DNA from: Planctomycetota bacterium
Lineage (GTDB): Bacteria > Planctomycetota > JAJSAM01 > JAJVHW01
Length of the DNA stretch: 64,000 bases
Reading direction: 5' to 3'
Assembly (NCBI GenBank): GCA_021414065.1
Contig: JAIOPE010000047.1
Location: 46,272 to 110,271, forward strand
The notes beneath the pieces are model-generated. The model saw only the letters and a program-made list of their open reading frames with translations, searched no databases and was not told the DNA's origin. This document shows, piece after piece, positions 12,777 to 36,060 of the stretch; position 1 is the stretch's first letter; each line of letters begins with the position of its first letter. The position numbers were made by a program, and so were the translations under genes.

Positions 12777-12817
12777 GGGCGGAGAGTCTGTCCGCCCGAC
12801 GCGCGCCGCGCCCGCGG

Positions 12818-16103: not shown

Positions 16104-16254
16104 GCGCCGAGTGTGCCGACCCGACCGCCGCGAATTCGCCGGTTTTCTGCGACATGACGATCAAGGAACCGGACTCCGGGGGCGACACACGACGCCGCAG
16201 GACGCAGCCGGCTTCCCGACGAAGCGGTCCGAGCCGGGACGCCGCCGCGATTCG

Positions 16255-16300
16255 GCGAATTGCGGATTCCCCCGACATCGCCCGCGGGATTCCGGACTCA
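16255..16300. promoter_or_regulatory. Conserved intergenic motif, copy 4 (GGATTCCCCCGACAtcg...GGGATTCCGGA)
   Basis: Between the STK3 start and small gene 4. Two half-site-like elements. Confidence 0.4.
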
Positions 16301-19445: not shown

Positions 19446-20068
19446 GGCTGCGGTGGCGAGACGGACCGACTGCGAAGCACTTCGAGCCGCTTCGTATACG
19501 CCTCGAGCGCCTTGCGGAACCTGCGCCACGCGGCGGAGAGATGGATGCCCATCTCGCCCGCGACATCTTCCATCGGCCGCTCCTCGAAGAGTCGCGCCTG
19601 CAGGAGCGCCTGGTCCTCTTCCGGAAGCTCCGCGAGCGCCGCGAGCATCACGCGGGACCGCTCTCGCGACGACGCAACGCGACTCGGCGTCTCCGACCCC
19701 GCGGGCAGGAGGTTCCCGAGCGACGACACGCCTTCGGCCTGCTCGAAGTCGGAGAACAGCGCTCGCGTGCCCTTGCCGCCTCGCTTCTCGGTGGTGGCGT
19801 CGCGTGCGATCTTGCGGATGCGGTTTTTCGCGATCGTGATGAGCCACGATCGATAGGCCCGGACGTCGGTCCATGTGTGTTGCGCCCGGTCCCGCCAGGC
19901 GAGGGCGAGCGTCTCCTGCCAGACGTCCTCCGCCTGACACACGCCGCGCACCACGGGCCCCATCGACCGGTCGATGATCACCAGGATCGAGTCCGGACCT
20001 GCCTCGTCGATGATCGCGTCGAAACGCGACGGATCGAGATGGTCCCCGGGTTGCGTCGGCTCGCTCAC
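19442..20068 (-). CDS. ECF sigma factor (ECF-c)
   Basis: ...DPSRFDAIIDEAGPD...AEDVWQETLALAWRDRAQHTW...LPEEDQALLQARLFEERPMEDVAGEMGIHLSAAWRRFRK. Start uncertain: the only in-frame candidate after the upstream gene's stop is GTG at 20068 (VSEPTQPGDHL...). Confidence 0.7.
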   Translation of the reverse strand: MSEPTQPGDHLDPSRFDAIIDEAGPDSILVIIDRSMGPVVRGVCQAEDVWQETLALAWRDRAQHTWTDVRAYRSWLITIAKNRIRKIARDATTEKRGGKGTRALFSDFEQAEGVSSLGNLLPAGSETPSRVASSRERSRVMLAALAELPEEDQALLQARLFEERPMEDVAGEMGIHLSAAWRRFRKALEAYTKRLEVLRSRSVSPPQP

Positions 20069-20099
20069 GCGGCCATCGTCGCTTCCGTTTGCGCCCGCG

Positions 20100-21071
20100 T
20101 CACTTCGAATCGTCGATGCGCCGGAAGACGTCGGCCAGCTTGGCGGCGACCTCGGCCGGCGGCGCGTACTTCGGGTCGATGGCGCGGGCGTCGCGGATCG
20201 ACCGGACGGCGAGATCCACCTCGTTGCGAGCAACTTCCACGACGGCGAGTTCGTGGAGAAGCGCCGGCCGCTGCGCGTCTGCCGACAACTCGATCGCGCG
20301 CCGGAATGAAGCCTCGGCCGTCACGAGATCGTTCTTCGCCACGGCTGCCCGGGCGGCGTCGGCGGCGGAACCCGCGCGCACCAGATCGGAGATGCCCCAT
20401 CCGCAGAGCAACGCGACGAGCACGATCACCGCTCCCACGCCCCAGAGGAGCGCTCGCTTGCAGCCGCGGCGCCCCGGAGCGGAGCCAGCGACGGCCGGCG
20501 TCGCGACCACCGCGTGCGACGCCCCTGCGGGTCGGCCGGCGAGCGCCGCGTGCATGGTCAGGACCTGCGCGGCGTTGTCCGGCACGCCCATCGGCGCCGG
20601 GAAGAACAGGAACCTCGCGTCCGTCGGCGACGCGGAGACGCGCAACTCGTGGTAGACGGAACCCTTCTCGTGCTCGGCCGCGCGCACTGCGCCGAGCGGG
20701 ATCGAGATCCGTTCGAGGACGCCCGCGTACCGTTCGGTGAGCACGAGGATGATGAGGCGGCGGTCGGTCAGTCCGACGAACACCTTGTCGCGCTGGAAGT
20801 AGAGGACGATCGCCCCGAACACGTAGAGCCCCCGCCGGAGCGTCTTCTCCACGCTCTCCTTCGACGGCACGCGCAAGCCGAACGCGCAGGCGACGAGCGA
20901 CTCGCCCGGTTCGAGTTCCTTCGCAAACGCTTCACGGATGCTGGCAGATGTGACGGAGAGGATCATTCGCACGATGTACCGACGCCTGCGTCGCATCGCC
21001 AGACTTCCGCGCGAACCCACGTCGGCAGTCGCCTCGTTCCAAGAAACTGCGAGTCGTTCGGTCTTCCACAA
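20100..21071 (-). CDS. Hypothetical membrane protein (cytoplasmic PH/GRAM-like N-domain, one TM helix, short TPR-like tail); first gene of the ECF-c/STK4 operon
   Basis: 323-aa ORF. Start at 21071 or internal ATG ~20996 (MRRRRRYIV...). TM segment ALLWGVGAVIVLVALLCGWGI. No recognisable catalytic motifs. Confidence 0.5.
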   Translation of the reverse strand: MWKTERLAVSWNEATADVGSRGSLAMRRRRRYIVRMILSVTSASIREAFAKELEPGESLVACAFGLRVPSKESVEKTLRRGLYVFGAIVLYFQRDKVFVGLTDRRLIILVLTERYAGVLERISIPLGAVRAAEHEKGSVYHELRVSASPTDARFLFFPAPMGVPDNAAQVLTMHAALAGRPAGASHAVVATPAVAGSAPGRRGCKRALLWGVGAVIVLVALLCGWGISDLVRAGSAADAARAAVAKNDLVTAEASFRRAIELSADAQRPALLHELAVVEVARNEVDLAVRSIRDARAIDPKYAPPAEVAAKLADVFRRIDDSK

Positions 21072-21118
21072 GACGTTCTCCAGGAACGCGTTGCGTCGCG
21101 CCCAACGCGTCCGTCGTC

Positions 21119-21146
21119 GAGATTCTCGAATTCACCCGACACATTC
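21119..21146. promoter_or_regulatory. Conserved intergenic motif, copy 5 (gagattctcGAATTCACCCGACAC)
   Basis: Between the hypothetical gene upstream of ECF-c and small gene 5. Confidence 0.4.
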
Positions 21147-21221
21147 GCCCACGGGATGCGCTTGGACTCTCCGTGCGACGCAGAACGCGACGCGAGGAAC
21201 CCCACGAACGGAGAGACGACC

Positions 21222-21551
21222 ATGACGAAGCTCACGACGAAGACGAACCTGACGGCCGGCGGCGCGAAGTTGAACCACGCCGCGGCGATCCGCACGGCGG
21301 CGGTCGCGGGTAGCGCGAAGTTGAACCATGCGGCCGCGGTTCGCACCACGATCGCTGCGGGCAGCGCACGGCTGAACCACGCCGCTCCGGTGCGCACGGC
21401 GGTCGCCGCCGGGGGGATGAAGCTGAACCACGCGCCGACCGTCCGCGCCGCGGTCGTCGCCGGGGGAGTGAAGCTCAACCACGCCGCGTCGGTGAAGACG
21501 AACGTCGTCGCTGCGGGATCCAAGCTGAACCACTCCGCTCTCGCGCGCTGA
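21222..21551 (+). CDS. Small tandem-repeat protein 5 (109 aa)
   Basis: gaacGGAGAgacgaccATG; MTKLTTKTNLTAGG then NHAA.VRT.[VI]AAGS.KL repeats; ends NHSALAR*. Confidence 0.8.
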   Translation: MTKLTTKTNLTAGGAKLNHAAAIRTAAVAGSAKLNHAAAVRTTIAAGSARLNHAAPVRTAVAAGGMKLNHAPTVRAAVVAGGVKLNHAASVKTNVVAAGSKLNHSALAR

Positions 21552-21595
21552 GCCGAAGCAACCCGCCCGGACACGGTTGAGCCGTGCCGGGCGGG

Positions 21596-24124
21596 TCACA
21601 GCATTCGCAGGCGTTCCAGCAGCGTCGATGCAGCGGCTGCCATCGGAGCGGCTTCCTCGCTCATCGGCTGCCCCAGCGTCGCCTCGAGTTCCGCCATCGC
21701 CTCCGCGGCCGCGCCGCGCCGCACCATCAGTTCCGCCAGATCGACGCTGAGGTGGACGGCCCGACGGTCGCCCGGCGCCATGCGGCCCTTCCACGCAGAG
21801 CGCAGCGTCCGCAGGATCTCCTCCGCCTCGCCGAAACGACCCTGGAGAGCTCGGATGCGAGCCAACTGCCCGGCTACGCCGACACGCGTCGCAGACGTCG
21901 CGTCCAAGGTCGCGGTGGCGCCCTCGAACACCTCCTCCTGCAACGCCGCGGCAGCGTCCACCTCGCCCAGGTCGATTCGGAGACCGGCCAGGTTGTGAAT
22001 GGCCCCAAACGTGGCCAGGATGTTCGACCCGTACACCTCGCGTGCAAGACGGCACACGTCTTCCAGGTGGGCCGCCGCAGCCGCGGGTCCGTCGTTCTCT
22101 TTGACGAACTGAGCGTACGACGCCAGCGCGTCGATCGTCTCGGGATCGCGCTCGCCATAGGTCTCCCGGCGTGCGTCCCACACGACGCGCATCTCGTCCT
22201 GACCGTCGCGGTCGCGTCCGAAGAGATCGAGAAGGATCGCCCGCGTCTGACGAACGCGAAGCGTCACCCGGTGGCTCGCTCCGAGCGCATCGACGGCCCG
22301 GGGCAGCAGCGCGTCCGCGAACGTCAGCGCTTCGGCGCCGTGACCGTCCATCCACATGGCGTGGACGAAGTCGTGCTCGATGTCGAGTCGGCGTGGGTCG
22401 TCGCTGCGTAACGTGCGCACAGCCGCCGCGGCCACGTCGCGGAGCATCCGGTGCGCTGTCTCGGCGTCGCCCTGCTGCAGGAGGAGCACCGCGAGCAGGT
22501 CCTGCGCGACGAGCGTATCGGGATGATCCGGTCCGAGGCGGCGGTCGAACGTCGCGACGGCCGCGCGGAGGAGTTCGTCGGCCGCGGCGTGCTCCGCGAG
22601 ACCGGTGTAGGCCCGGCCGAGCGTCGTCTGGAGCGCGGCGCGCGTCTCCTCGTTGCCTTGGAACGCGGTGGAGAGCTCGCGGCGCGCCCGTTCGAGGACG
22701 TCGAACACGCGCGCGTCGCGGCCGCGTTGCTCCAGGTCCACCGACTCGAACATCCCCTGGAGGAACCGGTGAACCTGCGCGAACTTGTCGCGCTCGATCT
22801 CCGCGCGGGCGAGGGCAGCCTCGGTCTCGGCCTTCGCAGCGCGCGCGGCGGCCTCGCTCTCGCGAGCGAGCTTCTCGTTGCGTTCCGCGCGGAGCACCGC
22901 AGACCGGAGCTCGGCGTTGCGCGACTGCTGTTCGACGAGCAACTCCGTGAGAGCGCGGTTGCGCTTCACCATGCGGAGCCCGCGCTCAAGAACGCCTGCG
23001 CGCCGCGCTCGGACCGACTTTCCGGCAAGCACCGAGCGCAGGTCGTCCGCGAAAGCGCGCGCAGTCGGCGTGCGGCGCGATCGGGCCTTCTCCAGAGCGG
23101 CGAGGACGACCGTCTCGAGGTCGCGCGGCACGACCGGGTTCAGCTTGGACGGCGCCTCGGGCTCCCACGTCTGGATGCGACGCAGCACCTCGTGCGCGAC
23201 GGGTCCGGGGAACGGCACCTGCAACGTGAGCGCCTCGTAAAGCGTCGCGCCGAGCGACCACACGTCGCTCCGCTCGTCGAGGGACGACGTCTCGCCGGCC
23301 GCCTGCTCGGGACTCGCGTAGTGCGGCGTGCCGAGGAACCCATGCGCCTGCGTGAGCGTCGCTTCGTCCTCGACGTCGGCCAGACCGAAGTCGAAGAGCA
23401 GCGCGAAGCCGTCGCCTCGCAGCATCACGTTCGACGGCTTGACGTCGCGGTGGACCACGCCCTGCGAGTGCGCGTGTGCCAGGGCTTCGGCAATGTCGAT
23501 CGCTGCGCGCGTCGCGGCCTGCCACCACGCGCCGCGCCACGGATCCGGCGGGGCACCGGCGACACCGGCGGCGAACGCGAAGTCCGCACCGGAAAGCCCC
23601 CCGGGCTCGCGACCTCGCAGCGACTCGACCGCGGCTGCGAGCGTGCGCCCATCGACGTACTGGAGTGTGAAGTACGGCTGCCCGTCGGCGTCGCCCATCT
23701 CGTAGACCGGCACGATGAGCGGGTGCGCCAGACGCGCCACGGCCCGGGCCTCGCGCTCGAACCGCTCACGCGCTCGGCCCGACGCCAGCCGCCGGGGCAG
23801 CACCTTCAGCGCGACGAGGCGCCCGAGTCGCTTGTCCTTCGCGAGGAGCACCTGCCCCATCCCGCCGCGGCCGAGTTCACGGATGATCTCGTATCCAGGA
23901 AACTCAGCGGCGGCCGCGTGGATGCGCGGCGGCGAGATCTCCCGCGCGAGCGCCCATGCCGCTTCGATCCGCGGACGCAGATCGGGACGCTCCAGAGCAA
24001 CGGCGTCGACGTCCGGCGTGCGCCCCGCCGCGAGGTCGCGGAGGAACGCCTCCATGGCGGCATCGACGATGCGATCGTCCGGCGTCTCGCTCGAAGATCC
24101 GCGGTCCGCGCCTGCGCGCGTCAC
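21596..24124 (-). CDS. Ser/Thr protein kinase with C-terminal TPR repeats, STK5
   Basis: GTG start (VTRAGADRG...) overlapping the ECF-d stop (GTGA at 24121-24124). GRGGMGQVLLA, HRDVKPSNVML, DFGLA. TPR C-terminus. Confidence 0.8.
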   Translation of the reverse strand: MTRAGADRGSSSETPDDRIVDAAMEAFLRDLAAGRTPDVDAVALERPDLRPRIEAAWALAREISPPRIHAAAAEFPGYEIIRELGRGGMGQVLLAKDKRLGRLVALKVLPRRLASGRARERFEREARAVARLAHPLIVPVYEMGDADGQPYFTLQYVDGRTLAAAVESLRGREPGGLSGADFAFAAGVAGAPPDPWRGAWWQAATRAAIDIAEALAHAHSQGVVHRDVKPSNVMLRGDGFALLFDFGLADVEDEATLTQAHGFLGTPHYASPEQAAGETSSLDERSDVWSLGATLYEALTLQVPFPGPVAHEVLRRIQTWEPEAPSKLNPVVPRDLETVVLAALEKARSRRTPTARAFADDLRSVLAGKSVRARRAGVLERGLRMVKRNRALTELLVEQQSRNAELRSAVLRAERNEKLARESEAAARAAKAETEAALARAEIERDKFAQVHRFLQGMFESVDLEQRGRDARVFDVLERARRELSTAFQGNEETRAALQTTLGRAYTGLAEHAAADELLRAAVATFDRRLGPDHPDTLVAQDLLAVLLLQQGDAETAHRMLRDVAAAAVRTLRSDDPRRLDIEHDFVHAMWMDGHGAEALTFADALLPRAVDALGASHRVTLRVRQTRAILLDLFGRDRDGQDEMRVVWDARRETYGERDPETIDALASYAQFVKENDGPAAAAAHLEDVCRLAREVYGSNILATFGAIHNLAGLRIDLGEVDAAAALQEEVFEGATATLDATSATRVGVAGQLARIRALQGRFGEAEEILRTLRSAWKGRMAPGDRRAVHLSVDLAELMVRRGAAAEAMAELEATLGQPMSEEAAPMAAAASTLLERLRML

Positions 24125-24765
24125 GGGTCGGCCGCCGCCGACACGTCGCCCGCCGCATCGAGACCGCGCAACGCGTCTCGATACAGCACCGCGCCGCGCC
24201 GGAACCGTCGCCACGCGGCCGAGAGGTGGATGTCGAGTTCCGCCGCCACCGACTCCATCGGACGCTCCTCGAGCACGTGGAGCCTCACCACCGCCTCGAC
24301 ATCTTCGGGAAGCGCGTCGAGCGCTCGCAGGATGAGTCGCGCGCGCTCGTGGTGCGACGCGATGCGACTCGGAGTGACGGAGTCGGCGGGGAGAACGTCG
24401 GCGAGCGATCCGCTGTCCGACGCGCGCAGGTCCTCGATCCGGTCGGCAGCGTGCCCCGCGCCGCGCTTCTCCGCGGAGAGGCGGCGACTCGCGTCGCGGA
24501 TGCGGTTCCGGGCGATCTCGAGCACCCACGCGCGGTAGGCGTCCCGCGAAGTCCACGTGTGCTGGGCCCGGTCCCGCCAGGCCGCGGCGAGGGTCTCCTG
24601 CCAGATGTCCTCCGGCTCGCACGCCGCGCGGAGTCTCGGACCCATCGACCGCGCGATGATCGCGACGATCGCGGCCGGCGAGAGGCTCTCGACGAGGGCA
24701 TCGAATCGCACCGGGTCTGCGTGCGAGGGCAGGTCGTTCGCGGGGCGGGACGGGGAGTCGGTCAT
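24121..24765 (-). CDS. ECF sigma factor (ECF-d)
   Basis: ATG 24765 (MTDSPSRPANDLPSHADPVRFDALVESL...). PEDIWQETLAAAWRDRAQHTW; sigma-4 LPEDVEAVVRLHVLEERPMESVAAELDIHLSAAWRRFRRG. Confidence 0.8.
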   Translation of the reverse strand: MTDSPSRPANDLPSHADPVRFDALVESLSPAAIVAIIARSMGPRLRAACEPEDIWQETLAAAWRDRAQHTWTSRDAYRAWVLEIARNRIRDASRRLSAEKRGAGHAADRIEDLRASDSGSLADVLPADSVTPSRIASHHERARLILRALDALPEDVEAVVRLHVLEERPMESVAAELDIHLSAAWRRFRRGAVLYRDALRGLDAAGDVSAAADP

Positions 24766-24821
24766 GGCACTGGGTCCGGTCGGGACGGGGAGGATCCCGT
24801 GCGTCGCGGAGCGATCGTCAC

Positions 24822-24846
24822 GAAATCTCCGGATTTCCCCGACAGG
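24822..24846. promoter_or_regulatory. Conserved intergenic motif, copy 6 (GAAATCTCCGGATTTCCCCGACAgg)
   Basis: Between ECF-d and small gene 6. Palindromic GAAATC-n4-GATTTC. Confidence 0.45.
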
Positions 24847-24922
24847 TTCGCCCGCGCCTTCCGCTCCCTCCCCATGTGGCGCGAGGAACGAGCCACAGGA
24901 ACCGAAACGAGGAGAGACGACC

Positions 24923-25468
24923 ATGACGAAGACCACGAAGATGACGGTGAAGACGACGATCCTGGCGGGCGGCACGCGCCTGAACCACGCCGCTGCGGTC
25001 CGCTCGACCGTCGTCGCCGGTGGCGTGCGCACCAATCACGCGGCGCCCGTCCGGACGGCTGTCACGGCGGCCGGAATGCGTCTGAACCACGCGGCGGCCG
25101 TTCGCTCGACCGTCGTCGCCGGTGGTCTGCGCTGGAATCACGCGGCGCCGGTGCGGACGTCGGTGATCGCCGGCGGCCTACGCCTGAACCACGCCGCGGC
25201 CGTTCGCTCGACCGTCGCCGCCGGTGGAACGCGCAACAACCACGCGGCGCCGATCAGGACCTCGGTGATCGCCGGGGGCCTCCGGCAGAACCACGCGGCG
25301 CCGATCCGCTCCACGATCGCCGCCGGCGGCCTCCGCTGCAACCACGCCGCGACCGTTCGCTCGACCGTCGTTGCGGGCGGCGTCCGCCAGAATCATGCGG
25401 CCCCGGTCAGGACGTCGGTCGTCGCCGGCGGCTTCCGACGGAACCACGCCGCGGCTGTCCGGGCCTGA
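24923..25468 (+). CDS. Small tandem-repeat protein 6 (181 aa)
   Basis: aacGAGGAGAgacgaccATG; MTKTTKMTVKTTILAGG then NHAA.[VI]R[ST].V.AGG repeats; ends NHAAAVRA*. Confidence 0.8.
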   Translation: MTKTTKMTVKTTILAGGTRLNHAAAVRSTVVAGGVRTNHAAPVRTAVTAAGMRLNHAAAVRSTVVAGGLRWNHAAPVRTSVIAGGLRLNHAAAVRSTVAAGGTRNNHAAPIRTSVIAGGLRQNHAAPIRSTIAAGGLRCNHAATVRSTVVAGGVRQNHAAPVRTSVVAGGFRRNHAAAVRA

Positions 25469-25479
25469 GCCGCACTTGA

Positions 25480-27897
25480 CTACGACTGCGCGGCGCGGGC
25501 GGCCCAGTCCCTCGCGTCGCGGAGCGCCACCTCGGCCTCGTCGTGCCGACCAAGGTCCGCGAGGCAGCGAGCGTGGACCTGCGCCGCCTGTTCGCGCCAC
25601 CGGAACGAACCGTTCAGTTCCGCCGCGCGTGCGGCATCGGTGACAGCGTCGATCGCGCCGGCGTGGTCGCCCTTGAGATGGAGCAGGCGAGCCAGTTGCA
25701 CGAGCGGGAACGCACGCAGCGGCGAGTCGGGCGGCGACGTCGCCAGCGCACGGTCCACGACCGATCGCTGAAGTGCAGCGGCTTCCTCGATCCGCCCGGC
25801 GTCGAGGAGCACGCCGGCCAGGTTGTGGTCTGCCGAGATGCTCGCGAGATGGCCGGGTCCGAACACTTCAGACGACAACGCGGACGCGCGGCGGATGAGC
25901 GGGACCGCCTCGTCGATGCGCCCAACCTCCTTCAGCATCTGACCGAGGTTCGCCAGCCCGAACAGCGTCTCCGGGTGTCGCTCGCCGAGCGTCCGCTCAC
26001 GTGCCGCGCAGGAGGACCGGAGCAGTCCGATGCCCTCGTCCGCGCTTTCCGCACGAAGCGACAGGATGAGGCCCAGGTTCTGCTCCGCGCGAAGTGAAAC
26101 CTCGTGATCGGGACCGAGCACGCGGCGGGCACGTTCGAGCGCAGAACGGATCGTCGCCTCCGCCTCGTCTCGCCGCCCGGCCCACTCGAGCATCTGCCCG
26201 ACCTCTGCGTCGTAACGGATCGTGCGAGCGTCGTCGGGCCCGAACACGCGGCGAGCCCGCTGCGCAATCTCGACCGCGTCTCGCGCGGGTCCGAGCGGAG
26301 CGCCGAGTTGGGCCGCAGAGGAGCTCCACACGAACTCGAGATCGATCCGTGCGGCGTTCGAAGCGTCGAGTCGCGCGCACGCCGCGTCCACGGCCGGCCG
26401 ACCGAGGGCCACAGCCTCGGCGTGGCGTCCGAGTTCGCCGAGCACAGCGACGATCACCGTCTGGATCTCGGCTGCGGCTTCCGGGTCTCCGGCGAACGAT
26501 GCGCCGGTGCGCGCAAGGCCCCGCTCCAGCACATCGGCGACGCGCACGTCGCGCCCTTCCTGCGCCGGGTCCGCGGAACTGAGAGTCTCCTTGAGGAACG
26601 TGAGCGCCGACTCGGCGCGGCGCCGCGCGGCGAGGGCCTCCGCCTCGTTCCGCTCTGCGCGCAGCACGGCGGCGCGGAGCTCTGCGTTGCGCGACTGCTG
26701 CTCGACGAGAAGCTCCGTCAGCGCGCGGTTGCGTTTCACGACGCGCAGCCCGCGTTCGAGCATCCCGGCGCGACGTGCGCGGATCTTCCGCCCCGCAAGG
26801 AACGCGCGCAGATCGTCGGCGAACTCGGCGGCGGTCGCGTATCGCTTCGCCGGGTCCTTCTCGAGCGCGTGGAGGACGATCGTCTCCAAGTCCGGCGGCA
26901 GCCCCGGAACGAGTTTCGACGGCGGCTCCGGTTCCCATGTCTGCACGCGGCGCAGGATCTCCTGCGTCGTCGGCCCGGGGAACGGGAGCTGCAACGTGAG
27001 CGCCTCGTAGAGCGTCGCGCCAAGCGAGAAGACGTCGGACCGGGCGTCGAGCGCGTCGTTCGTGCCCGCGGCCTGCTCGGGACTCGCGTAGTGCGGCGTG
27101 CCGAGGAACCCGTGCGTCAGCGTGAGCGACGCTTCGTCTTCGACGTCGGCTAGCCCGAAGTCGAAGAGCAGGGCGAAGCCGTCGTCGCGCAGCAGCACGT
27201 TCGACGGCTTCACGTCGCGGTGCACGACGCCGCTCGCGTGCGCGTGCGACAACGCATCGGCGACGTCCATCGCGGCGCGCGCCGCCGCCCTGGCCCACGT
27301 GGACGTCCAGGGCTCCGGCGGGGCCTTCGTGCATCCGGCGGACCGCGCGAAGTCGGCGCCCGTGAGCAAAGCGACCCCGGTGCGCGACTCGCGCGTCGCT
27401 CCGATGGCCTGCGCGAGCGTGCGGCCCGGTACGTAGCGCATCGAGAACCACGGCTGGCCGTCGTCCTCTCCCGTCTCGTAAACCGGCACGACGAGCGGAT
27501 GGTCGAGCTTCGCGACGGCCCTGGCTTCGCGCAGGAAGCGGTCCTTCGCCCGCGGCGACGTGATCCGTCGCGGAAGCACCTTCAGCGCGACCACGCGCCC
27601 GAGGCGGAGGTCGCGGGCCAGATACACCTGCGCCATTCCGCCGCGGCCCAGCTCGCGGAGGACTTCGTGCCCGGCGATCGTCGGCCGCGCAACCGCGCCC
27701 CGGCGCGTCGCGACGTCGTGCGCGAGCGCCGCGAGCTCGCGGACGCGATCGGCGAGGTCCGGTCGGCTCGGAAGTGCCGTCTCGACCACGATCGCCCGCC
27801 CGGCGGCGACGTCTGCGACGAACTGTCCGAAGACGCCGTCGAGGAGCGCGCCGTCCGGATCGCCCTGGGCGGACGAGCTCGAATCTCGCTCCGTCAC
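25480..27897 (-). CDS. Ser/Thr protein kinase with C-terminal TPR repeats, STK6
   Basis: GTG start (VTERDSSSS...) overlapping the ECF-e stop. GRGGMAQVYLA, HRDVKPSNVLL, DFGLA. Confidence 0.8.
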   Translation of the reverse strand: MTERDSSSSAQGDPDGALLDGVFGQFVADVAAGRAIVVETALPSRPDLADRVRELAALAHDVATRRGAVARPTIAGHEVLRELGRGGMAQVYLARDLRLGRVVALKVLPRRITSPRAKDRFLREARAVAKLDHPLVVPVYETGEDDGQPWFSMRYVPGRTLAQAIGATRESRTGVALLTGADFARSAGCTKAPPEPWTSTWARAAARAAMDVADALSHAHASGVVHRDVKPSNVLLRDDGFALLFDFGLADVEDEASLTLTHGFLGTPHYASPEQAAGTNDALDARSDVFSLGATLYEALTLQLPFPGPTTQEILRRVQTWEPEPPSKLVPGLPPDLETIVLHALEKDPAKRYATAAEFADDLRAFLAGRKIRARRAGMLERGLRVVKRNRALTELLVEQQSRNAELRAAVLRAERNEAEALAARRRAESALTFLKETLSSADPAQEGRDVRVADVLERGLARTGASFAGDPEAAAEIQTVIVAVLGELGRHAEAVALGRPAVDAACARLDASNAARIDLEFVWSSSAAQLGAPLGPARDAVEIAQRARRVFGPDDARTIRYDAEVGQMLEWAGRRDEAEATIRSALERARRVLGPDHEVSLRAEQNLGLILSLRAESADEGIGLLRSSCAARERTLGERHPETLFGLANLGQMLKEVGRIDEAVPLIRRASALSSEVFGPGHLASISADHNLAGVLLDAGRIEEAAALQRSVVDRALATSPPDSPLRAFPLVQLARLLHLKGDHAGAIDAVTDAARAAELNGSFRWREQAAQVHARCLADLGRHDEAEVALRDARDWAARAAQS

Positions 27898-28529
27898 GAG
27901 CCGGGCCCACCCGGCGGCATCGACCGCGACTCCAGCGATTTCACGAGGTCCCGGAACAACTGCGAGCCCCTGCGGAAACGCCGCCACGCGGCCGAGACGT
28001 GCGCGTTGAGCTCTGCGGCGATCGTCTCCATCGGCTTGTCTTCGAAGAGGTGCATGCGCACGTACGGCTCGACGTCGGGAGGCAGCTTCTCGAGGGCTTC
28101 GGTCAGGATGCGCGACCGCTCGCGGTGCGACGCCACGCGACTCGGCGTGACCGACCCGGCGGGCAGGACGTCGGCGAGGGAGACGCTGTCCGAGGGGTTC
28201 CGCTCCGAGAAGAGCCCGGTGCCGCCCGTCCCACCGCGCTTCGCCGCGCCGTCGGCTCGAGCGAAGTCGCGGATGCGGTTCCGCGCGATCGAGATGAGCC
28301 ACGTGCGATACGAGTGGAGCCCCTCCCACCGGTGCGTCGTGCGATCCCGCCAGGCCGACGCGAGCGTTTCCTGCCAGACGTCTTCCGGCTCATAGCGCCC
28401 GCGGAGCGTGGCTCCCATCGAACGGGCGATCACGACGAGGACTTCGTCCGGGGCGACGCTCTCGATCACGCGGTCGAACTGCGCAGGGTCCGCGTGGGGT
28501 GCGTCGCCGGTGAAGTCGTCGTCGGCCAT
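27894..28529 (-). CDS. ECF sigma factor (ECF-e)
   Basis: ATG 28529 (MADDDFTGDAPHADPAQFDRVIESVAPD...). PEDVWQETLASAWRDRTTHRW; sigma-4 LPPDVEPYVRMHLFEDKPMETIAAELNAHVSAAWRRFRRG. Confidence 0.8.
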   Translation of the reverse strand: MADDDFTGDAPHADPAQFDRVIESVAPDEVLVVIARSMGATLRGRYEPEDVWQETLASAWRDRTTHRWEGLHSYRTWLISIARNRIRDFARADGAAKRGGTGGTGLFSERNPSDSVSLADVLPAGSVTPSRVASHRERSRILTEALEKLPPDVEPYVRMHLFEDKPMETIAAELNAHVSAAWRRFRRGSQLFRDLVKSLESRSMPPGGPGS

Positions 28530-28595
28530 GGGCGGGCGAGGATACCCCGGCGAACGTCGTGAAGTGGCGTCCGGCGCGGCGAGGAATCCGCGCTC

Positions 28596-28626
28596 CGGGA
28601 GAATTCCGCGGAATCCCCCGACACGC
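28596..28626. promoter_or_regulatory. Conserved intergenic motif, copy 7 (gagaATTCCGCGGAATCCCCCGACAC)
   Basis: Between ECF-e and small gene 7. Confidence 0.45.
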
Positions 28627-28702
28627 CCGCCGAGATCCGTCGCTTCGATCCCCATGCAGCGCAGGACGCGCCGCAAGGAACGAACGAAACGGAGCGACGA
28701 CG

Positions 28703-29149
28703 ATGCAGACGAAGACGACGGTGAAGGCGGGCGGCGCGAAGTTCAACCACGCGGCGACGGTCCGCACGGCGGTGCAGGCTGGTGGCATCCGCTACAACCA
28801 CGTGGCGGCCACGCGCACGGCGCTGACGGCAGGCGGGATCAAGTTCAACCACGCGACGCAAGTCCGCACGGCGGTGCAGGCTGGCGGCACCAAGTTCAAT
28901 CACGCGGCGATCGTGCGCAACGCAGTCGTGCGCACCGCGATCGTCGCAGGCGGGGTCAAGTACAACCACGCGCCTGCCGTTCGCACGGGCTTCGCCGCCG
29001 GCGGCGTGAAGTTCAACCACACCCCTGCCGTCCGCACGGACGTCGCGTCGGGTGGCATCAGGTTCAACCACGTCGCCCAGGTCCGCACCGGCGTCGCCGC
29101 CGGCGGGAACCGCTTCAACCACTCGGTGGCGATGCCCCGCGCTCGCTGA
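28703..29149 (+). CDS. Small tandem-repeat protein 7 (148 aa; variant C-terminus)
   Basis: aacGGAGcgacgacgATG; MQTKTTVKAGG then NHA..VRT.[VL].AGG[IT]K[FY] repeats. C-terminus ...NHSVAMPRAR* differs from the usual NHAASVR* and overlaps the STK7 stop by ~35 nt. Confidence 0.75.
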   Translation: MQTKTTVKAGGAKFNHAATVRTAVQAGGIRYNHVAATRTALTAGGIKFNHATQVRTAVQAGGTKFNHAAIVRNAVVRTAIVAGGVKYNHAPAVRTGFAAGGVKFNHTPAVRTDVASGGIRFNHVAQVRTGVAAGGNRFNHSVAMPRAR

Positions 29150-31490
29150 GCGCCGCCGCAGCGTCGTCCGCAACGCGCGACGCGCGCTCCGCCGCCTCCG
29201 TCAGCCCGAGCCCCGCGAGGATCGCCCGGGCCCGGAGCGCGGCCTCCGCGGCCCCGCCGTGGTCCAACAACCCGGCCCGGATGCGGGCGAGTTGGAGGAT
29301 CACGGCGGCCATCGGCCCGGAGTCCGCCGCGAGGGCACCGGGCGCGGCGCGCAGCGCCCGTTCCTGGCATCGGAGCGCCTCGGGGAAGTCGCCGGCGTCC
29401 ATCGCCGCCCCGGCGAGGTTGTGCAGGTTCATCACGGTCGTCGGATGGCGTTCGCCGAACACGTCCATCGACAGTTCGACGGCGCGCTCGAACATCGGCC
29501 GCGACTCCGCCACGCGCCCCGCCTCCTTGCGAAGCTGCGCCGCGAGTCCGAGCGAGTTCAGCGTGTCCGGATGTCGCTCGCCGACCGTGTCGCGCCGGCC
29601 CACCCACGTCGCGTGCATCAGGACGTCCGCCTCGTCCGACCGGCCGGAGTTCGCGAGCGCCAGCGCGAGGTTGTTCTGGGCGTGGAGCGTGGACTCTGCC
29701 GAAGGTCCGAGCGCGCGGACCGCGTCGGCGAGCGCCGGCCGCAGCACCGCCTCGGCCTCGATCGGCCGGTCCGCCGCCGTCAGGATGCCGCCCAGATTCG
29801 CGCTCGCTTCGACGGTCACCGGGTGCTCGTGGCCGAAGGCGCGCGCGGCGGAGTCGGCCGCCTCTTGCGCGAACGCGAGCGCCCGGTCGAACTCCCCGAA
29901 CTGACCGGCTGCGGACGCCGCGACGCCGAGCAGGTGGATCGTCTCGATGCGATCCGGGCCGAGGTCCGCACGCGCGCGGACGAGCGCCTCCTCCGCAACC
30001 TGCACAGCCTCTTCGCTCGCACCGAGTCCCGTGAACGTCTTCGAGACGACGAGCAGCACCGCTGCGCGGAGTTCCGGATGGTCCGCGAAGTCCCGACGGG
30101 CTCGCTCCGCAGCCTTTCGCAGCACGTCGGCCACGCGCACGTCGCGCCCGCCCATCTCGGGGTCGGCGGAACCGAGCGTGTCCACGAGGAGCGACGTCAC
30201 CGCGGCCGCCTTGTCGCGTTCGGCCTCCGCCCGTGCTCGCGCCTCGCGCGCCTCGGCCTCGTTCCGCTCGGCGCGCAGCACCGCCGAACGCAACTCGGCG
30301 TTGTGCGCCTGCTGTTCGACGAGCAGGTCCGTCAGGGCCCGGCCGCGTTTCACGCTGCGAAGGCCGCGCTCGATGAAGCCCGCACGCTTCGCGCGCACCT
30401 TCCGGCCGTCGAGGACCGCGCGCAAGTCTTCGGCGAACGCAGCGGCGCTCGCGTACCGCTTCGCCGGGTCCTTCTCGAGGGCGGCGAGCACGACCGTCTC
30501 CAGATCCTTCGGGATGCTCGCGTTCAGCTTCGACGGCGACTCCGGCTCCCAGGTCTGGATGCGACGCAGCACCTCGTGTGTGGTCGGCCCGGGGAACGGG
30601 AGCGCCAGCGTGATCGCCTCATAGAGAGTCGCGCCGAGCGAGAAGACGTCGGTCCGCACGTCGATCGAGTCCGTCGCGCCGGCCGCCTGCTCGGGACTCG
30701 CGTAGTGCGGCGTGCCGACGAAACTGTGCGTCAGCGTGAGCGTCGCTTCGTCGTCCACGGACGCGAGACCGAAGTCGAACAGCAACGCGAACCCGTCGCG
30801 CCGGAGCATCACGTTCGACGGCTTCACGTCGCGGTGCGTCACTCCCTGCGAGTGCGCGTACGAAAGCGCATCGGCGACGTCGGCTGCGGACTGCGCCGCC
30901 GCGCGCCACCACGGGCCGGCCCAACGCTGCGGCGGCGGCGCGACTCCCGCGCATTGCCCGAAGTCAGCGCCTGTCAGAGCCTGCGGATCCCTCGATCTCA
31001 CCGACTGGATCGCCGTCGCGAGCGTCGCGCCTTCGACGAACGCCATCGTGAAGTACGGCTGCCCTTCGGCCTCTCCGAGATCGTAGACCGGCACGACGAG
31101 CGGGTGCTGGAGCCGCGCCACCGCGCGGGCTTCGCGATCGAATCGCTCCCGCGCCCGGCCCGCGGCCATGCGCCGCGGGAGCACCTTCAGCGCGACCGTC
31201 CGGCCGAGCCGGGTGTGGCGGGCGAGGAGCACCTGACCCATGCCCCCGCGTCCGAGTTCACGGAGGATCTCGTAGCCGGCGAACGTCGGCCGCAGCGCCG
31301 GCCGACGGGGCGCGATGTCGATCGCGAGTGCCCACGCGGCCCGGACACGGTCCCTGAGATCCGGGCGGCCCGGCACGGCGGCGTCGAGGTCCACCGCGCG
31401 GCCTTCGGACACGGCGTCGATGAAGTCGGTCAGGAGACGATCGAGGAGATCGTCGTCGGGCGACCCGGCGTCGCTGTCGGCCCCGCTCAC
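29115..31490 (-). CDS. Ser/Thr protein kinase with C-terminal TPR repeats, STK7
   Basis: GTG start (VSGADSDAGSPDDDLLDRLL...) overlapping the ECF-f TGA stop. GRGGMGQVLLA, HRDVKPSNVML, DFGLA. Confidence 0.8.
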   Translation of the reverse strand: MSGADSDAGSPDDDLLDRLLTDFIDAVSEGRAVDLDAAVPGRPDLRDRVRAAWALAIDIAPRRPALRPTFAGYEILRELGRGGMGQVLLARHTRLGRTVALKVLPRRMAAGRARERFDREARAVARLQHPLVVPVYDLGEAEGQPYFTMAFVEGATLATAIQSVRSRDPQALTGADFGQCAGVAPPPQRWAGPWWRAAAQSAADVADALSYAHSQGVTHRDVKPSNVMLRRDGFALLFDFGLASVDDEATLTLTHSFVGTPHYASPEQAAGATDSIDVRTDVFSLGATLYEAITLALPFPGPTTHEVLRRIQTWEPESPSKLNASIPKDLETVVLAALEKDPAKRYASAAAFAEDLRAVLDGRKVRAKRAGFIERGLRSVKRGRALTDLLVEQQAHNAELRSAVLRAERNEAEAREARARAEAERDKAAAVTSLLVDTLGSADPEMGGRDVRVADVLRKAAERARRDFADHPELRAAVLLVVSKTFTGLGASEEAVQVAEEALVRARADLGPDRIETIHLLGVAASAAGQFGEFDRALAFAQEAADSAARAFGHEHPVTVEASANLGGILTAADRPIEAEAVLRPALADAVRALGPSAESTLHAQNNLALALANSGRSDEADVLMHATWVGRRDTVGERHPDTLNSLGLAAQLRKEAGRVAESRPMFERAVELSMDVFGERHPTTVMNLHNLAGAAMDAGDFPEALRCQERALRAAPGALAADSGPMAAVILQLARIRAGLLDHGGAAEAALRARAILAGLGLTEAAERASRVADDAAAALSERGASPPSG

Positions 31491-32116
31491 GTCGCGCGAC
31501 TCTTCGATTCGAACGACTGCAACGCTTCGCGGTAGATCTCCGCGCCGCGACGGAACCGCCGCCACGACTGTGAGAGTCCGAGCCCGAGCGCCGCGGCGAC
31601 GTCCGGCATCGGCGTCTCCTCGAGCAGGTGCATCCGCACGATCGGCTCGATGTCGTGCGGGAGTGCCGCGAGCGCCGCGAGAACCGCCTTCGCACGCTCG
31701 TTGTGGGACGCCACGCGGCTCGGGGTGACCGACCCCGCAGGGAGCACCGCCGAGAGCGACACGCTCCCCGCGCCGCGCAGCGCGCCGAACGTCGCCGCCC
31801 CCGCCCCACCGCCCCGCTTCTCGGCGTGGGCCACGCGGATCATGTCCTTGATCCGGTTCTTCGCGATCGTGAGGAGCCAGTTCCGGTAGCCGCGGTTCCC
31901 CGCCCAGACGTGCTGCTCGCGATCGCGCCAGGCCTGCGCGAGCGTCTCCTGCCAGACGTCGTCGGCTTCGCAGATCGCGCGCGCCGCGGGCCCCATCGCG
32001 CGGTCGATGAGCGCCAGCAGCGACTCCGGGCCGATGTCGTCGATGAGCGCGTCGAACCGAATCGGGTCGAGGTGCGGGGCCGCTCGCTGGTCGGAAACCG
32101 GGAGATTCTCGGTCAA
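31487..32116 (-). CDS. ECF sigma factor (ECF-f)
   Basis: Likely TTG start at 32116 preceded by AAGGAG (caAGGAGtttgcgcTTG). ...HLDPIRFDALIDDIGPE...ADDVWQETLAQAWRDREQHVW; sigma-4 IVRMHLLEETPMPDVAAALGLGLSQSWRRFRRG. The start codon choice is uncertain. Confidence 0.7.
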   Translation of the reverse strand: MTENLPVSDQRAAPHLDPIRFDALIDDIGPESLLALIDRAMGPAARAICEADDVWQETLAQAWRDREQHVWAGNRGYRNWLLTIAKNRIKDMIRVAHAEKRGGGAGAATFGALRGAGSVSLSAVLPAGSVTPSRVASHNERAKAVLAALAALPHDIEPIVRMHLLEETPMPDVAAALGLGLSQSWRRFRRGAEIYREALQSFESKSRAT

Positions 32117-32169
32117 GCGCAAACTCCTTGCTGTGCATGGGTTGTCGCCGACACGCCGACCCGGGCCGC

Positions 32170-32200
32170 GGGATTTTTGAATCTGGGCCGACACTTCCGG
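32170..32200. promoter_or_regulatory. Conserved intergenic motif, copy 8 (ggatttttGAATCTGGGCCGACAC)
   Basis: Between ECF-f and small gene 8. More diverged. Confidence 0.35.
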
Positions 32201-32269
32201 TCGCGTCTTCCGCTCTCTGGTCCCGCGACGCACTGGACGCGGCGCAGAAAACCAACAGGAGATGCAACG

Positions 32270-32653
32270 ATGAGCAAGCACATGGAGACGAAGACGACGG
32301 TGAAGGCGGGCGGCGGCGGCAGCAACCACGCGGCGGGTGTCCGGACGACGGTCAAGGCCGGCGGCATCGAACCCAACCACGCGGCCACTGTCCGGTCCAC
32401 GGTCAAGGCGGGCGGCATGGACCCCAACCACGCGGCCGTGGTCCGGTCCTCCGTGATGGCGGGCGGCGTCCACCTGAACCACACCCCGGCGGTCCGCTCG
32501 ACGGTCAAGGCCGGCGGCGGTGGCGCGAACCACGCGGCGTGTGTCCGTACGACGGTCAAGGCCGGCGGCGTCGACCCCAACCACGCGGCCACTGTCCGTT
32601 CCACGGTGAAGGCGGGCGGCACGGATCCCAACCACGCCGCTTCCGTGCGCTGA
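32270..32653 (+). CDS. Small tandem-repeat protein 8 (127 aa)
   Basis: caacAGGAGAtgcaacgATG; MSKHMETKTTVKAGGGG then NHAA.VR[ST][ST]VKAGG repeats; ends NHAASVR*. Confidence 0.8.
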   Translation: MSKHMETKTTVKAGGGGSNHAAGVRTTVKAGGIEPNHAATVRSTVKAGGMDPNHAAVVRSSVMAGGVHLNHTPAVRSTVKAGGGGANHAACVRTTVKAGGVDPNHAATVRSTVKAGGTDPNHAASVR

Positions 32654-32671
32654 GGACCGGCGCGAACGACG

Positions 32672-35305
32672 TCACACCGAGAGGCGTTCTCGCACGACCG
32701 CCGCATCCTCGATCCGCCCCGCGGACGAGAGGATCGCGGCGGTCCGTTGCAATCCCTGGCGCCACGCGGGCCGGCCCAACCACCCGCGGGACGTCATCGT
32801 GTCCAAGGCACCGCCGGCGAACGCGACGGCCTCGTCGAGGCGCCCCGCCGCCGCCCGGATCGCAGACAGACGAACCAGCGCGGCGCAGCGGTCGTCGTCA
32901 CCCGCGGCCCCGAACGCCTCCGCGATCCGGATGACGTCGGCATACGCATCCGCGGCCGCGACGTCGTCGCCGCAGCCGACGAGCGCGTTCCCGAGGCGGC
33001 ATCCGAGCGCGCAGACCGTGCTATCGGACTCCCCGTAGACGCGCTTCCACGTCGCCATGCAGTCGCGCGCGAGCGACGCCGCCTCCGCGAAGCACCGGCA
33101 CGCCGTGAGGGCCGTGACCCGGTGCGCCGCGGTGATCAGCGTGGACTTGTGCTCCGGCCCGAGGACCTCTTGCGAGATCGCGAGCGCTTCGGCGAGCAGC
33201 GCCTCCGCGGCGCGCGGATCGCCGCGGTCGGTCAGGCTCGTCGCGAGGTTCACGCGGGCGACGTTCGTCCGAGGATGACGTGCGCCGAGCGTGCGGCAAC
33301 GGACGTCGAACACCTGCTGCAGGAGCGCGAGGGCCTCGGGCGACGAGCGATCGCGGTTGCGAATCGCCTGCGCGAGGTTCGCGAGGGTCGTGACCGTGTC
33401 CGCGTGATCCGGCCCGAGCTTCGTCGTGGCGCGTTCGAGGAGATCGCGGCTGAGCGCCTCCGATTCCTCGAAGCGACCGGCCGCGTTGGCGATTCGGGAC
33501 ATCACGGACGTGAAGGAGAACCACAGCTCGCCGCCGGGCTCCGCCGTGCGTTCGATCGTCGCGGCGAGCGCGCGCGCCCGGCGCTCCGCTTCCGCGCGGT
33601 CGCCGCCGTCGAAGAGCACCGTGAGCTGGTAGACCTGCGCCTCCAGCGCGGCGCGCGCATCCGGCCCGTGCGCTCGCGCCGACGCCTCGATGCACGCCTC
33701 GCCCGTGCGACGACTGTCCGCGAACCGGCCGAGCCCGTAGTGGACGGCCGAGATCTTCCCGAGGATCTCCGCGACGACGGCCGGCCGCCCGGCGAAGTCG
33801 CGTAGCACGTCGGTCTCGGCCCGGGCGAGCACGTCGGCGACGCGCACGTTGCGATCGCCGGTCGAAGGGTCGGCCGTGCCGAGGAGTTGCGTGAGGAACG
33901 AGACCACGTCGTTCGCGGTGTCGCGCTCGGCCTCGGCGCGCGCCCGTTGCGCATCCGCTTCGCGACGGGACCGCTCCGACTCCTCGCGGGCGGCCTGCGC
34001 CTCGGCCTCGTTCCGTTCCGCGCGCAGCACCGCGGATCTGAGCTCCTCGTTCCGCGCCTGCTGCTCGACGAGAATCTCGGTGAGCGCACGGTTCCTCTTC
34101 ACCAGCCGCAGGCCGCGCTCGAGCACGCCCGCCCGGCGCGCCTTCACCTTCCGGCCGCCGAGGAACGCGCGCAGGTCCGCCGCGAGTGCGGCGGCCGACG
34201 CGTATCGCTTCGTGCGGTCCTTCTCGAGCGCGCAGAGGACGATCGTCTCCAAATCCGCCGGGACATCCGCCGCGATCTTCGACGGCGGCACCGGCTCCCA
34301 CGTCTGCACGCGGCGGAGGACTTCGTGCGGTGTCGGCCCGGGGAACGGGAACTGCAGCGTGAGCGCCTCGTAGAGCGTGGCACCGAGCGAGAAGACGTCG
34401 CTCCGGCCGTCGAGCGAGTCCGTGCCGCCGGCCGCCTGCTCGGGGCTCGCGTAGTGCGGCGTGCCGAGGAAGCCCCGCGAGAGCGTGAGCGAGCCTTCGT
34501 CTTCGACCGCGGCGAGACCGAAGTCGAGGAGCAACGCGAACCCGTCGGGGCGCAGCATCACATTCGAGGGCTTCACGTCGCGGTGGACCACGCCGTTCGC
34601 ATGAGCGTGCGCGAGCGCCTCGGCGACATCGAGAGCGACGTGAGCGACCGCGCGGGCCCACGACTTCCGCCAGCGTTCCGGCACCTCGCCGGCCACGCGA
34701 GCGGAGCGCGCGAACGTCGATCCGTCGCGCGCCGCGATCTCACCGGACGTCCGCGCCGACGCGATCGCCTGTCCGAGCGTGCAACCATCGACGTACGCCA
34801 TGGAGAACCACGGCTGCCCGTCGTCGCCGTCGAGCCCGTCGCCGATTCCGTGGATCGGAACGATGAGCGGATGCGACAGCCGGGCGATCGCCCGCGCCTC
34901 GCGGAGGAACCGGTCCTTCGACCTCGGCCCCGTGAGCCGCTGCGGGAGCACCTTGAGCGCGACAGTGCGCCCGAGCCGCCGGTCCCGTGCGAGGTAGACG
35001 TGCCCCATCCCGCCGCGTCCGATCTCGCGCAAGATGTCGTGCCCGGCGATCTGCAAGGGCGCCGCCGCGGGCAGGGCGCGGCCCGGCGACACCTCGCGCG
35101 CGATCGCCAGCATCTCGGCGACGCGATCGTTCAGGTCCGGGCGGCCGGGTGCGGCGGCGGCGACGTCGGGCTCGCGCCCCGCCGCGAGGTCCGCGATGAA
35201 GCCCGCGAGAACTCCGTCGAGCAGGGCTTCGTCCGGCCCGGCGTCTCCCCCGTCGTCATCGTCGGGCGACGGACCGGGCCGGCCCACCGCAGACACGCCC
35301 GTCAC
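32672..35305 (-). CDS. Ser/Thr protein kinase with C-terminal TPR repeats, STK8
   Basis: GTG start (VTGVSAVGRPGPSPDDDDGG...) overlapping the ECF-g stop (GTGA 35302-35305). GRGGMGHVYLA, HRDVKPSNVML, DFGLA. Confidence 0.8.
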   Translation of the reverse strand: MTGVSAVGRPGPSPDDDDGGDAGPDEALLDGVLAGFIADLAAGREPDVAAAAPGRPDLNDRVAEMLAIAREVSPGRALPAAAPLQIAGHDILREIGRGGMGHVYLARDRRLGRTVALKVLPQRLTGPRSKDRFLREARAIARLSHPLIVPIHGIGDGLDGDDGQPWFSMAYVDGCTLGQAIASARTSGEIAARDGSTFARSARVAGEVPERWRKSWARAVAHVALDVAEALAHAHANGVVHRDVKPSNVMLRPDGFALLLDFGLAAVEDEGSLTLSRGFLGTPHYASPEQAAGGTDSLDGRSDVFSLGATLYEALTLQFPFPGPTPHEVLRRVQTWEPVPPSKIAADVPADLETIVLCALEKDRTKRYASAAALAADLRAFLGGRKVKARRAGVLERGLRLVKRNRALTEILVEQQARNEELRSAVLRAERNEAEAQAAREESERSRREADAQRARAEAERDTANDVVSFLTQLLGTADPSTGDRNVRVADVLARAETDVLRDFAGRPAVVAEILGKISAVHYGLGRFADSRRTGEACIEASARAHGPDARAALEAQVYQLTVLFDGGDRAEAERRARALAATIERTAEPGGELWFSFTSVMSRIANAAGRFEESEALSRDLLERATTKLGPDHADTVTTLANLAQAIRNRDRSSPEALALLQQVFDVRCRTLGARHPRTNVARVNLATSLTDRGDPRAAEALLAEALAISQEVLGPEHKSTLITAAHRVTALTACRCFAEAASLARDCMATWKRVYGESDSTVCALGCRLGNALVGCGDDVAAADAYADVIRIAEAFGAAGDDDRCAALVRLSAIRAAAGRLDEAVAFAGGALDTMTSRGWLGRPAWRQGLQRTAAILSSAGRIEDAAVVRERLSV

Positions 35306-36029: not shown

Positions 36030-36060
36030 CGAAATCCGGAACTTCGACCGACACATCCGT
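36030..36060. promoter_or_regulatory. Conserved intergenic motif, copy 9 (GAAATCCGGAACTTCGACCGACAC)
   Basis: Between ECF-g and small gene 9. Confidence 0.4.

Follow-up and report, generated by a model that had tools for sequence, protein, structure and literature searches.

We analysed a stretch of 64,000 nt (the window; G+C content 71.6%) of the Planctomycetota bacterium contig JAIOPE010000047.1, positions 46,272 to 110,271, which contains ten plus-strand small genes (sg1 to sg10) built of 17-aa repeats of the form NHAAxVRSTVxAGGxxx (NH repeats). Upstream of each of them, an A/T-rich segment precedes a CCGACAC-like box, and this element is probably the upstream part of a promoter of the type read by extracytoplasmic function (ECF) sigma factors, which would drive each small gene. 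The conservation is bipartite, with a fixed spacing and a fixed distance to the ATG, and the element co-occurs with ECF and kinase genes across genomes. The window itself encodes nine ECF sigma factors on the minus strand, all with Sigma70_r2 and r4_2 domains and with mutual identities of 51-78%; these paralogs are the candidate trans-acting factors for the small-gene promoters. The element has not been described previously for this ECF sigma family and, as a promoter, is an ordinary kind of regulatory element.

The ten upstream regions were aligned without gaps, anchored on the box. From 5′ to 3′, the copies begin with 18 nt rich in A/T, after which come the box CCGACA(C/G), a weakly conserved 16-nt spacer, and a second short element, CGCT(C/T), which is replaced by GACTC in sg3 and sg4. 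Six variable bases follow, often succeeded by GTGTG, then the leader, an A-rich tract, and GGAGAG-N6-7-ATG. The distance between the two conserved elements is 16 nt in nine of the ten copies and 15 nt in sg2 (Table 1). The motif starts 97-120 nt and the box 82-100 nt before the ATG. The initial annotation, which gave 75-120 bp, had correctly placed the element upstream of all ten small genes and had correctly quoted four sequence variants. Its best copy, that of sg6 (motif start 24821/2), was one base off: positions 24822-24845 read GAAATCTCCGGATTTCCCCGACAG, ending with ...CCCCGACAG, so that the final base is G and not C. CCGACAC had been regarded as invariant and as part of an inverted-repeat motif. 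However, it is exact in only six of the ten copies (the exceptions are sg1, sg4, sg6, and sg10), and, rather than belonging to a palindrome, it appears to be the -35-like half of a bipartite promoter, the -10-like partner of which, CGCT(C/T), had been missed.

The exact pattern CCGACAC-N16-CGCT has four matches in the window, all of which are small-gene sites, compared with 0.22 expected; none of 100 shuffles reached this number. CCGACAC by itself is not enriched (21 matches vs. 21.7 expected). When both strands were scanned with a position weight matrix, small-gene sites represented eight of the nine best matches, and all ten sites were found within the top 19. Patterns with two or three allowed mismatches are uninformative in DNA with 72% G+C. 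The mean pairwise identity is highest for the box (0.78), followed by the -10 element (0.60), the A/T block (0.51), and the spacer (0.41). For the upstream flanks, i.e. the adjacent 1-8 nt and 60 nt, it is 0.30-0.31, compared with 0.27 for random sequences. Downstream, the values are 0.24 for the 16 nt after the -10 element, 0.56 for the middle of the leader, and 0.79 from the ribosome-binding site to the ATG. The flanks are saturated and the conservation is punctate; therefore, the motif is not a residue of duplication.

For comparison, eighty loci encoding ECF homologs were fetched. The nearest homologs, with identities of up to 55%, are all encoded in metagenome-assembled genomes (MAGs) of Planctomycetota. 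The same architecture was found beside homologous ECF and kinase genes in at least 14 of these MAG loci and holds across 25 aligned sites, and the spacing register is held in 14 external sites when the -10 element is read as C(G/T)CT. Eight loci (L002, L008, L009, L011, L013, L019, L020, and L022) have NH-repeat small genes beside the ECF homolog, with repeat periods of 17-25 aa, and all eight contain a box-like heptamer, C(G/T)CT 16 nt further on, and usually GTGT six nt later. At six loci (L003, L004, L005, L006, L023, and L065), the architecture is divergent from the ECF gene and precedes an unrelated gene for a secreted protein; L005 reads GGAATCCGCGGAATGTCCGACAG-N16-CGCTC, which is nearly identical to sg7. 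At L005, L009, and L019, the ECF gene is paired with a kinase gene. The 350-bp regions divergent-upstream of 75 ECF homologs, 25.7 kb in total, contain 11 matches to the pattern, compared with 71 in 991 kb elsewhere, an enrichment of about six-fold (expected 1.8, Poisson p ~4e-6). A de novo count of bipartite k-mers upstream of the ECF genes was obscured by G/C-rich noise, and an nhmmer search with a 51-nt promoter profile lacked sensitivity (best E-value 0.45).

At least 893 proteins, with 229 representatives of clusters, make up the wider small-gene family; all are unannotated and have no Pfam match. A word-indexed protein search with sg6 found nothing, and the AlphaFold model of sg6 is of low confidence (pLDDT 49.7) and was not used. 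At nine loci (L082-L090), relatives of the small genes stand in tandem beside Peptidase_C39/ABC exporter genes, an arrangement that looks like a gene cluster for ribosomally synthesized and post-translationally modified peptides (RiPPs); the neighbours also include conserved unknown genes of 490 and 380 aa. No ECF gene, kinase gene, or CGACA motif was found at these loci, and each small gene has a sigma-54 -24/-12 element, GG[CT]A[CT]-N5-TTGCT. The small genes of the window resemble these relatives in that each would have a dedicated promoter for an alternative sigma factor, but they lack an upstream GG-N10-GC and would depend on a different sigma family. Because the motif is found beside ECF genes before an unrelated gene and is absent where ECF neighbours are lacking, it follows the sigma family and not the small-gene family. 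The initial annotation had tied it to the small genes rather than to the ECF genes; this agrees with its placement in the window, where it is indeed retained at small genes without an adjacent ECF gene, but is reversed by the comparative loci, i.e. by the unrelated target gene and the sigma-54-driven relatives.

For the start site, the sigma factor, and the roles of the kinases and of the A/T blocks, we infer the following scheme from the sequences. CCGACA(C/G) would be the -35 element, and C(G/T)CT(C/T), which follows at a distance of 16 bp (15 bp in sg2), would be the -10 element; the co-located paralogous ECF sigma factors would direct RNA polymerase to CGACA(C/G)-N16-C(G/T)CT. Transcription is predicted to start 6-8 bp past the -10 element, at the often conserved (G)TGTG, which would yield a leader of ~47-65 nt with an A-rich tract and, as ribosome-binding site, GGAG at its end. 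The ECF sigma factors would probably be switched on by the adjacent Ser/Thr kinases, which carry tetratricopeptide (TPR) repeats. The A/T blocks, located at about -55 to -37, one helical turn apart and often with a CCGG core between them, would add upstream contacts; most likely, they raise the promoter strength, either by offering the RNA polymerase alpha subunit an UP-like contact or by binding an accessory protein.

Other assignments of the two elements were tried and rejected. GGATTT or GAAATC as the -35 element together with CGAC or CGTC as the -10 element would leave spacers of only 12-13 bp, and the external sites do not conserve the bases of a CGTC-like -10 element. The sequence GGAAC close to the ribosome-binding site, as the -35 element of a leaderless transcript, is ~8-10 bp too near the ATG and is not invariant. 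No sigma-70-like site (TTGACA-N16-18-TATAAT-like) was found within positions 20000-33000, and no sigma-54-like site (TGGCAC-N5-TTGCW, with GG at -24 and GC at -12) is present upstream of any small gene in the window, the sole match in the window being at 47343, away from the small genes.

Kinase-regulated ECF sigma factors include ECF43, with EcfP/PknT of Vibrio parahaemolyticus and EcfK/PknS of Xanthomonas citri, and kinase-linked groups of Planctomycetes are ECF59, ECF61, ECF62, and ECF217 (PMC7826278, PMC8999054, PMC13147305). The ECF genes of the window are similar in that they lie beside a gene for a Hanks-type kinase, without an anti-sigma gene, in a planctomycete-like host. The phospho-switch in sigma2.2 of ECF43 involves the loss of the acidic DAED motif and a phosphorylatable Thr in its place (PMC8999054, PMC13147305). 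In contrast, all nine window ECF proteins keep an acidic sigma2.2 motif, (E/D)xxDVWQE (e.g. EPEDVWQE); therefore, an ECF43-type phospho-switch is not the expected mode, and the likeness to ECF43 is in gene context only. Phosphosites in the linker have been reported for EcfK (PMC13147305), and the sigma2-sigma4 linker of the window ECF proteins likewise has invariant Ser/Thr residues (LPAGSVTPSR), so that phosphorylation of the linker is a possibility. As a further difference from ECF43-type systems, the window kinases carry TPR repeats and the kinases of the relatives FGE-sulfatase domains. The latter are C-terminal and TPR repeats are absent in the kinases of L019 (363-3434, plus strand), L008, L013, L020, and L022; in these loci, the kinase gene precedes the ECF gene in an operon, and the divergent partner of the kinase gene is the small gene together with its promoter.

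The helix of sigma4 that is predicted to read the -35 element has the sequence SAAW(R/H/Y)R(F/Y)R (e.g. in the ECF proteins encoded at 8477-9088 and 42931-43542 and in those of L002 and L011). W-Y-R in place of W-R-R is found in the window protein encoded at 8477-9088 and in the L011 and L002 proteins. The Y variant goes with A instead of G in the box, i.e. TGAACAG at sg1 and GCAACAC at L011, a pairing that could reflect an arginine-guanine contact, to judge from these two to three cases only.

A consequence for the window is that nine paralogous sigma factors would read ten near-identical promoters. Since the cassettes hardly differ in their -35 and -10 elements, cross-talk among the nine sigma factors, which had been suggested in the initial annotation, is plausible and would be expected unless specificity lies upstream; signal specificity would then have to reside in the kinases and not in the DNA. 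The element would provide a concrete promoter consensus (A/T blocks, CGACA(C/G), N16, C(G/T)CT) for uncharacterised kinase-linked ECF sigma factors of Planctomycetota. To our knowledge, none of the kinase-linked planctomycetal ECF groups has a member with a mapped regulon. Likely direct targets would thereby be defined, namely a large unannotated family of NH-repeat peptides and one secreted protein, and one peptide family would be placed under two alternative sigma factors, ECF and sigma-54, in different lineages.

ECF promoters generally have an AAC-containing -35 element, a spacer of 16-17 bp, and a CGT-type -10 element, as exemplified by sigma-E of E. coli and sigma-W of B. subtilis, and group-specific motifs vary. 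The window element shares with them the bipartite form, the rigid spacing of 16 (+/-1) bp, the G/C-rich composition without TATAAT, the position next to ECF genes, and the conservation with the sigma family across genomes. Several observations weigh against its assignment as an ECF promoter. The -35 (GACAC) and -10 (CGCT) elements differ from the textbook consensus GGAAC ... CGT: the former is CGACA(C/G), or AACA in sg1 and L011, and not GGAAC, and the latter is CGCT or CTCT and not CGTC, similar in style to the AAC and CGT cores but distinct from the textbook consensus. Unlike typical ECF systems, the ECF/kinase operons themselves carry no copy of the promoter, and no autoregulation is visible. 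One external subgroup has CGCTC 14 nt after the box and is in register only when the -10 element is read as C(G/T)CT. In addition, the paralogous sites are statistically non-independent. Lastly, a metagenome scan with the repeat unit NHAAxVR[ST] yielded a single locus, L081, the closest external relative of the window promoters, in which the A/T dyad (GGATTTCTCCGGAATCC), the -10 element (TTCCGCTC), and the leader with the ribosome-binding site are retained, but GGGGAAT stands where the box should be. Since the box is replaced and the rest is kept, either the box is replaceable or the A/T element acts in its own right. This locus is the main observation that the promoter model does not cleanly explain, and it keeps a separate protein-binding role of the A/T element alive.

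The A/T inverted repeat (GAAATC-N4-GATTTC with a TCCGGA/CCGG core) could alternatively be an operator for a dimeric factor, i.e. a repressor or a class-I-type activator, that acts on top of any sigma factor; we regard this as unlikely. It would be compatible with the perfect 6+6 repeats in sg1 and sg6, with an inverted repeat of 5-6 bp in seven of the ten copies (shuffle p <0.12), with one two-sided change in sg7 (A-T to T-A) that preserves the symmetry, and with the dyad of L081, which is kept despite the replaced box. The CCGG core is found between the A/T blocks in 10 of the 25 sites, a fraction reached by none of 2000 shuffles. However, the repeat is perfect only in sg1 and sg6, and with up to three mismatches it has 11 matches in the window, compared with 8.6 expected. 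Individual copies tend to hold some inverted repeat of 5-6 bp (p 0.009-0.39), but the registers differ among them. For the register of sg6, pairing across the ten copies is 65%, a value reached by 295 of 500 shuffles (mean 64.9%), and it is 61.7% when the partner is slid by one column (-1). Furthermore, most external sites keep the A/T blocks and lack the dyad, and no candidate regulator gene is conserved beside the cassettes. As judged from the aligned copies, there is a local tendency to symmetry around TCCGGA, yet no conserved dyad. The initial annotation had proposed an ECF-dependent promoter or a palindromic operator; the first proposal is supported, whereas the second fails, because the register is not conserved and covariation is absent.

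The two A/T peaks are common to the window set and the external set, at box positions -15 to -12 and -5 to -3, corresponding to about -50/-47 and -40/-38 relative to the predicted start. With this numbering, which assumes the predicted start, the blocks would fit an UP-like element or a site for another protein. UP elements of the rrnB P1 type have subsites for the C-terminal domain of the alpha subunit at about -57 to -47 and -46 to -38. The window promoters are similar in having two A/T-rich blocks a helical turn apart that directly precede the -35 element, at a genomic G+C content of 72%, a likeness that depends on positions relative to the predicted start. Unlike UP elements, the blocks measure only 3-5 bp, frequently have a CCGG core between them, and form an inverted repeat in some copies. 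The A/T dyad and its CCGG core might also be a separate control site, for another factor or for a second contact by the kinase-activated ECF holoenzyme, and the ten cassettes a parallel sensor array, which seems decidedly improbable. If this were true, each TPR kinase/ECF pair would report its own signal, possibly matured repeat peptides, onto near-identical promoters, resulting in a kinase-gated, cross-talking autoinduction of RiPP-like peptides that other bacteria run via sigma-54.

We give slightly less weight still to a shared bidirectional region, in which the A/T dyad would double as the -35 or UP region of the divergent ECF-kinase operon and thereby confer autoregulation, a common feature of ECF sigma factors (PMC7826278). 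The start codons of the adjacent ECF genes are just 46-69 bp from the A/T block, and their promoter must therefore overlap the region of the element. However, the element is kept at sg1, which has a co-directional upstream gene, and at sg3-sg5, which have no adjacent ECF gene, and the ECF gene that starts at 43542 lacks it in its upstream region. From the A/T block to the ECF start, the sequence identity is at the random level, and the box-N16-CGCT pattern was not found on the minus strand of any intergenic region of the window; with no minus-strand copy at the ECF operons, autoregulation via this motif is not seen. It is highly improbable that the motif is functionless residual similarity from a recent tandem duplication of the cassettes, a by-product that the initial annotation had proposed to recognize by comparing the divergence of motif and flanks: the cassettes are clearly paralogous, but the flanks are at the random level, whereas conservation is seen in the box, -10 element, and A/T block, and the architecture recurs in other genomes before two unrelated gene families. 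Equally remote is a function as RNA, i.e. a structured 5′ leader with transcription starting upstream, for which the conserved block between the -10 element and the ribosome-binding site could be taken as a sign, but RNAalifold predicted no consensus pairs over the ten aligned regions, Rfam has no match in the window, and the sequence upstream of the A/T block contains no conserved promoter-like element.

The coordinates of the small genes, of their predicted promoters, and of the ECF and kinase genes next to sg6 are listed in Table 1. On the minus strand, ten genes encode Ser/Thr kinases that carry TPR repeats, each of them in convergent orientation to a small gene, and the order within a cassette is small gene, convergent kinase gene, and then ECF gene; the unit is therefore more than a simple divergent pair. 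The initial annotation had described all ten upstream regions as divergent from an ECF or kinase gene, which does not hold for every one of them: at one end of the array, sg1 is preceded by a co-directional TPR gene (4231-5361), and sg5 faces an open reading frame of 323 codons. At the other end of the array, the last ECF gene (start 43542) has no divergent small gene.

Table 1. Small genes of the window, predicted promoter elements upstream of them, and the ECF and kinase genes next to sg6.
Feature	Position	Strand	Remarks
sg1	5502-6029	+	NH-repeat small gene
sg2	9862-10263	+	NH-repeat small gene
sg3	12938-13489	+	NH-repeat small gene
sg4	16362-16808	+	NH-repeat small gene
sg5	21222-21551	+	NH-repeat small gene
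sg6	24923-25468	+	181 aa, 17-aa repeats; gene served by the predicted sg6 promoter
sg7	28703-29149	+	NH-repeat small gene
sg8	32270-32653	+	NH-repeat small gene
sg9	36130-36768	+	NH-repeat small gene
sg10	40111-40500	+	NH-repeat small gene
Ser/Thr kinase with TPR repeats	21599-24172	-	Downstream of ECF gene 24151-24765; one of ten
ECF sigma gene	24151-24765	-	Sigma70_r2 + r4_2; start codon 57 bp from A/T block
sg6 A/T-rich segment CGAAATCTCCGGATTTCC	24821-24838	+	Two A/T blocks ~10 bp apart; predicted position ~-53 to -36
sg6 inverted repeat GAAATC-TCCG-GATTTC	within 24821-24838	+	6+6
sg6 -35-like box CCGACAG	24839-24845	+	
sg6 -10-like element CGCTC	24862-24866	+	16 nt after box
sg6 predicted start region (CATGTG) and ~50-nt 5′ leader	24873-24922	+	Predicted start; leader with conserved GCGCGAGGAACG-type block, A-rich tract, and GGAGAG ribosome-binding site
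sg1 predicted promoter	5392-5437	+	A/T block; variant box TGAACAG 5410-5416; CGCTC 5433-5437
sg2 predicted promoter	9759-9803	+	Box CCGACAC 9777-9783; 15-nt spacer; CGCTC 9799-9803
sg3 predicted promoter	12820-12865	+	Box CCGACAC 12838-12844; GACTC 12861-12865
sg4 predicted promoter	16254-16299	+	Box CCGACAT 16272-16278; GACTC 16295-16299
sg5 predicted promoter	21118-21163	+	Box CCGACAC 21136-21142; CGCTT 21159-21163
sg7 predicted promoter	28600-28645	+	Box CCGACAC 28618-28624; CGCTT 28641-28645
sg8 predicted promoter	32170-32215	+	Box CCGACAC 32188-32194; CGCTC 32211-32215
sg9 predicted promoter	36030-36075	+	Box CCGACAC 36048-36054; CGCTG 36071-36075
sg10 predicted promoter	40007-40052	+	Variant box GCGACGG 40025-40031; CGCTG 40048-40052

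The composition of the cassettes varies. Two tandem ECF genes on the minus strand (8477-9088 and 9115-9708) share one cassette, and the cassettes of sg2 and sg3 (kinase genes 10557-12860 and 13914-16103) are without any ECF gene. The 323-aa open reading frame (20100-21071, minus strand) has a coding-like G+C content of 0.85 at third codon positions and no Pfam match; it is placed between an ECF gene (start 20068) and the sg5 promoter, and its cassette is the only one with an extra gene. An additional, degenerate copy of the promoter, GAATTCGCCGGTTTTCTGCGACAT-N16-GACTC, is located at 16132-16190 on the plus strand, ~120 bp upstream of the sg4 promoter and adjoining the start of a kinase gene; it may be the remnant of a lost part of a cassette.

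The leaders of all ten small genes and of L081 share a conserved block, G(C/T)GCGACGCA(C/G)GACGCG (24879-24905 in sg6), which occupies columns 71-99 of the alignment, with the mid-leader identity given above and without an RNAalifold consensus structure. At L025, L029, and L036, a hairpin-like conserved sequence, GAGACTCTCCACCGAGGAAAC...GGTGGAGAGTCTTCC, is found ~150-250 nt upstream of the ECF homolog, preceded by a T7 tract and a GGACAC-like box; it may represent a structured RNA. Finally, a sequence of ~50 nt, GGTTCCGTTGCGGAGTCGGACGCGCGCTTGGACCTCACGCCCGACAGGTCAAG, is present in two minus-strand copies at 63549-63600 and 63818-63870, ~270 bp apart.

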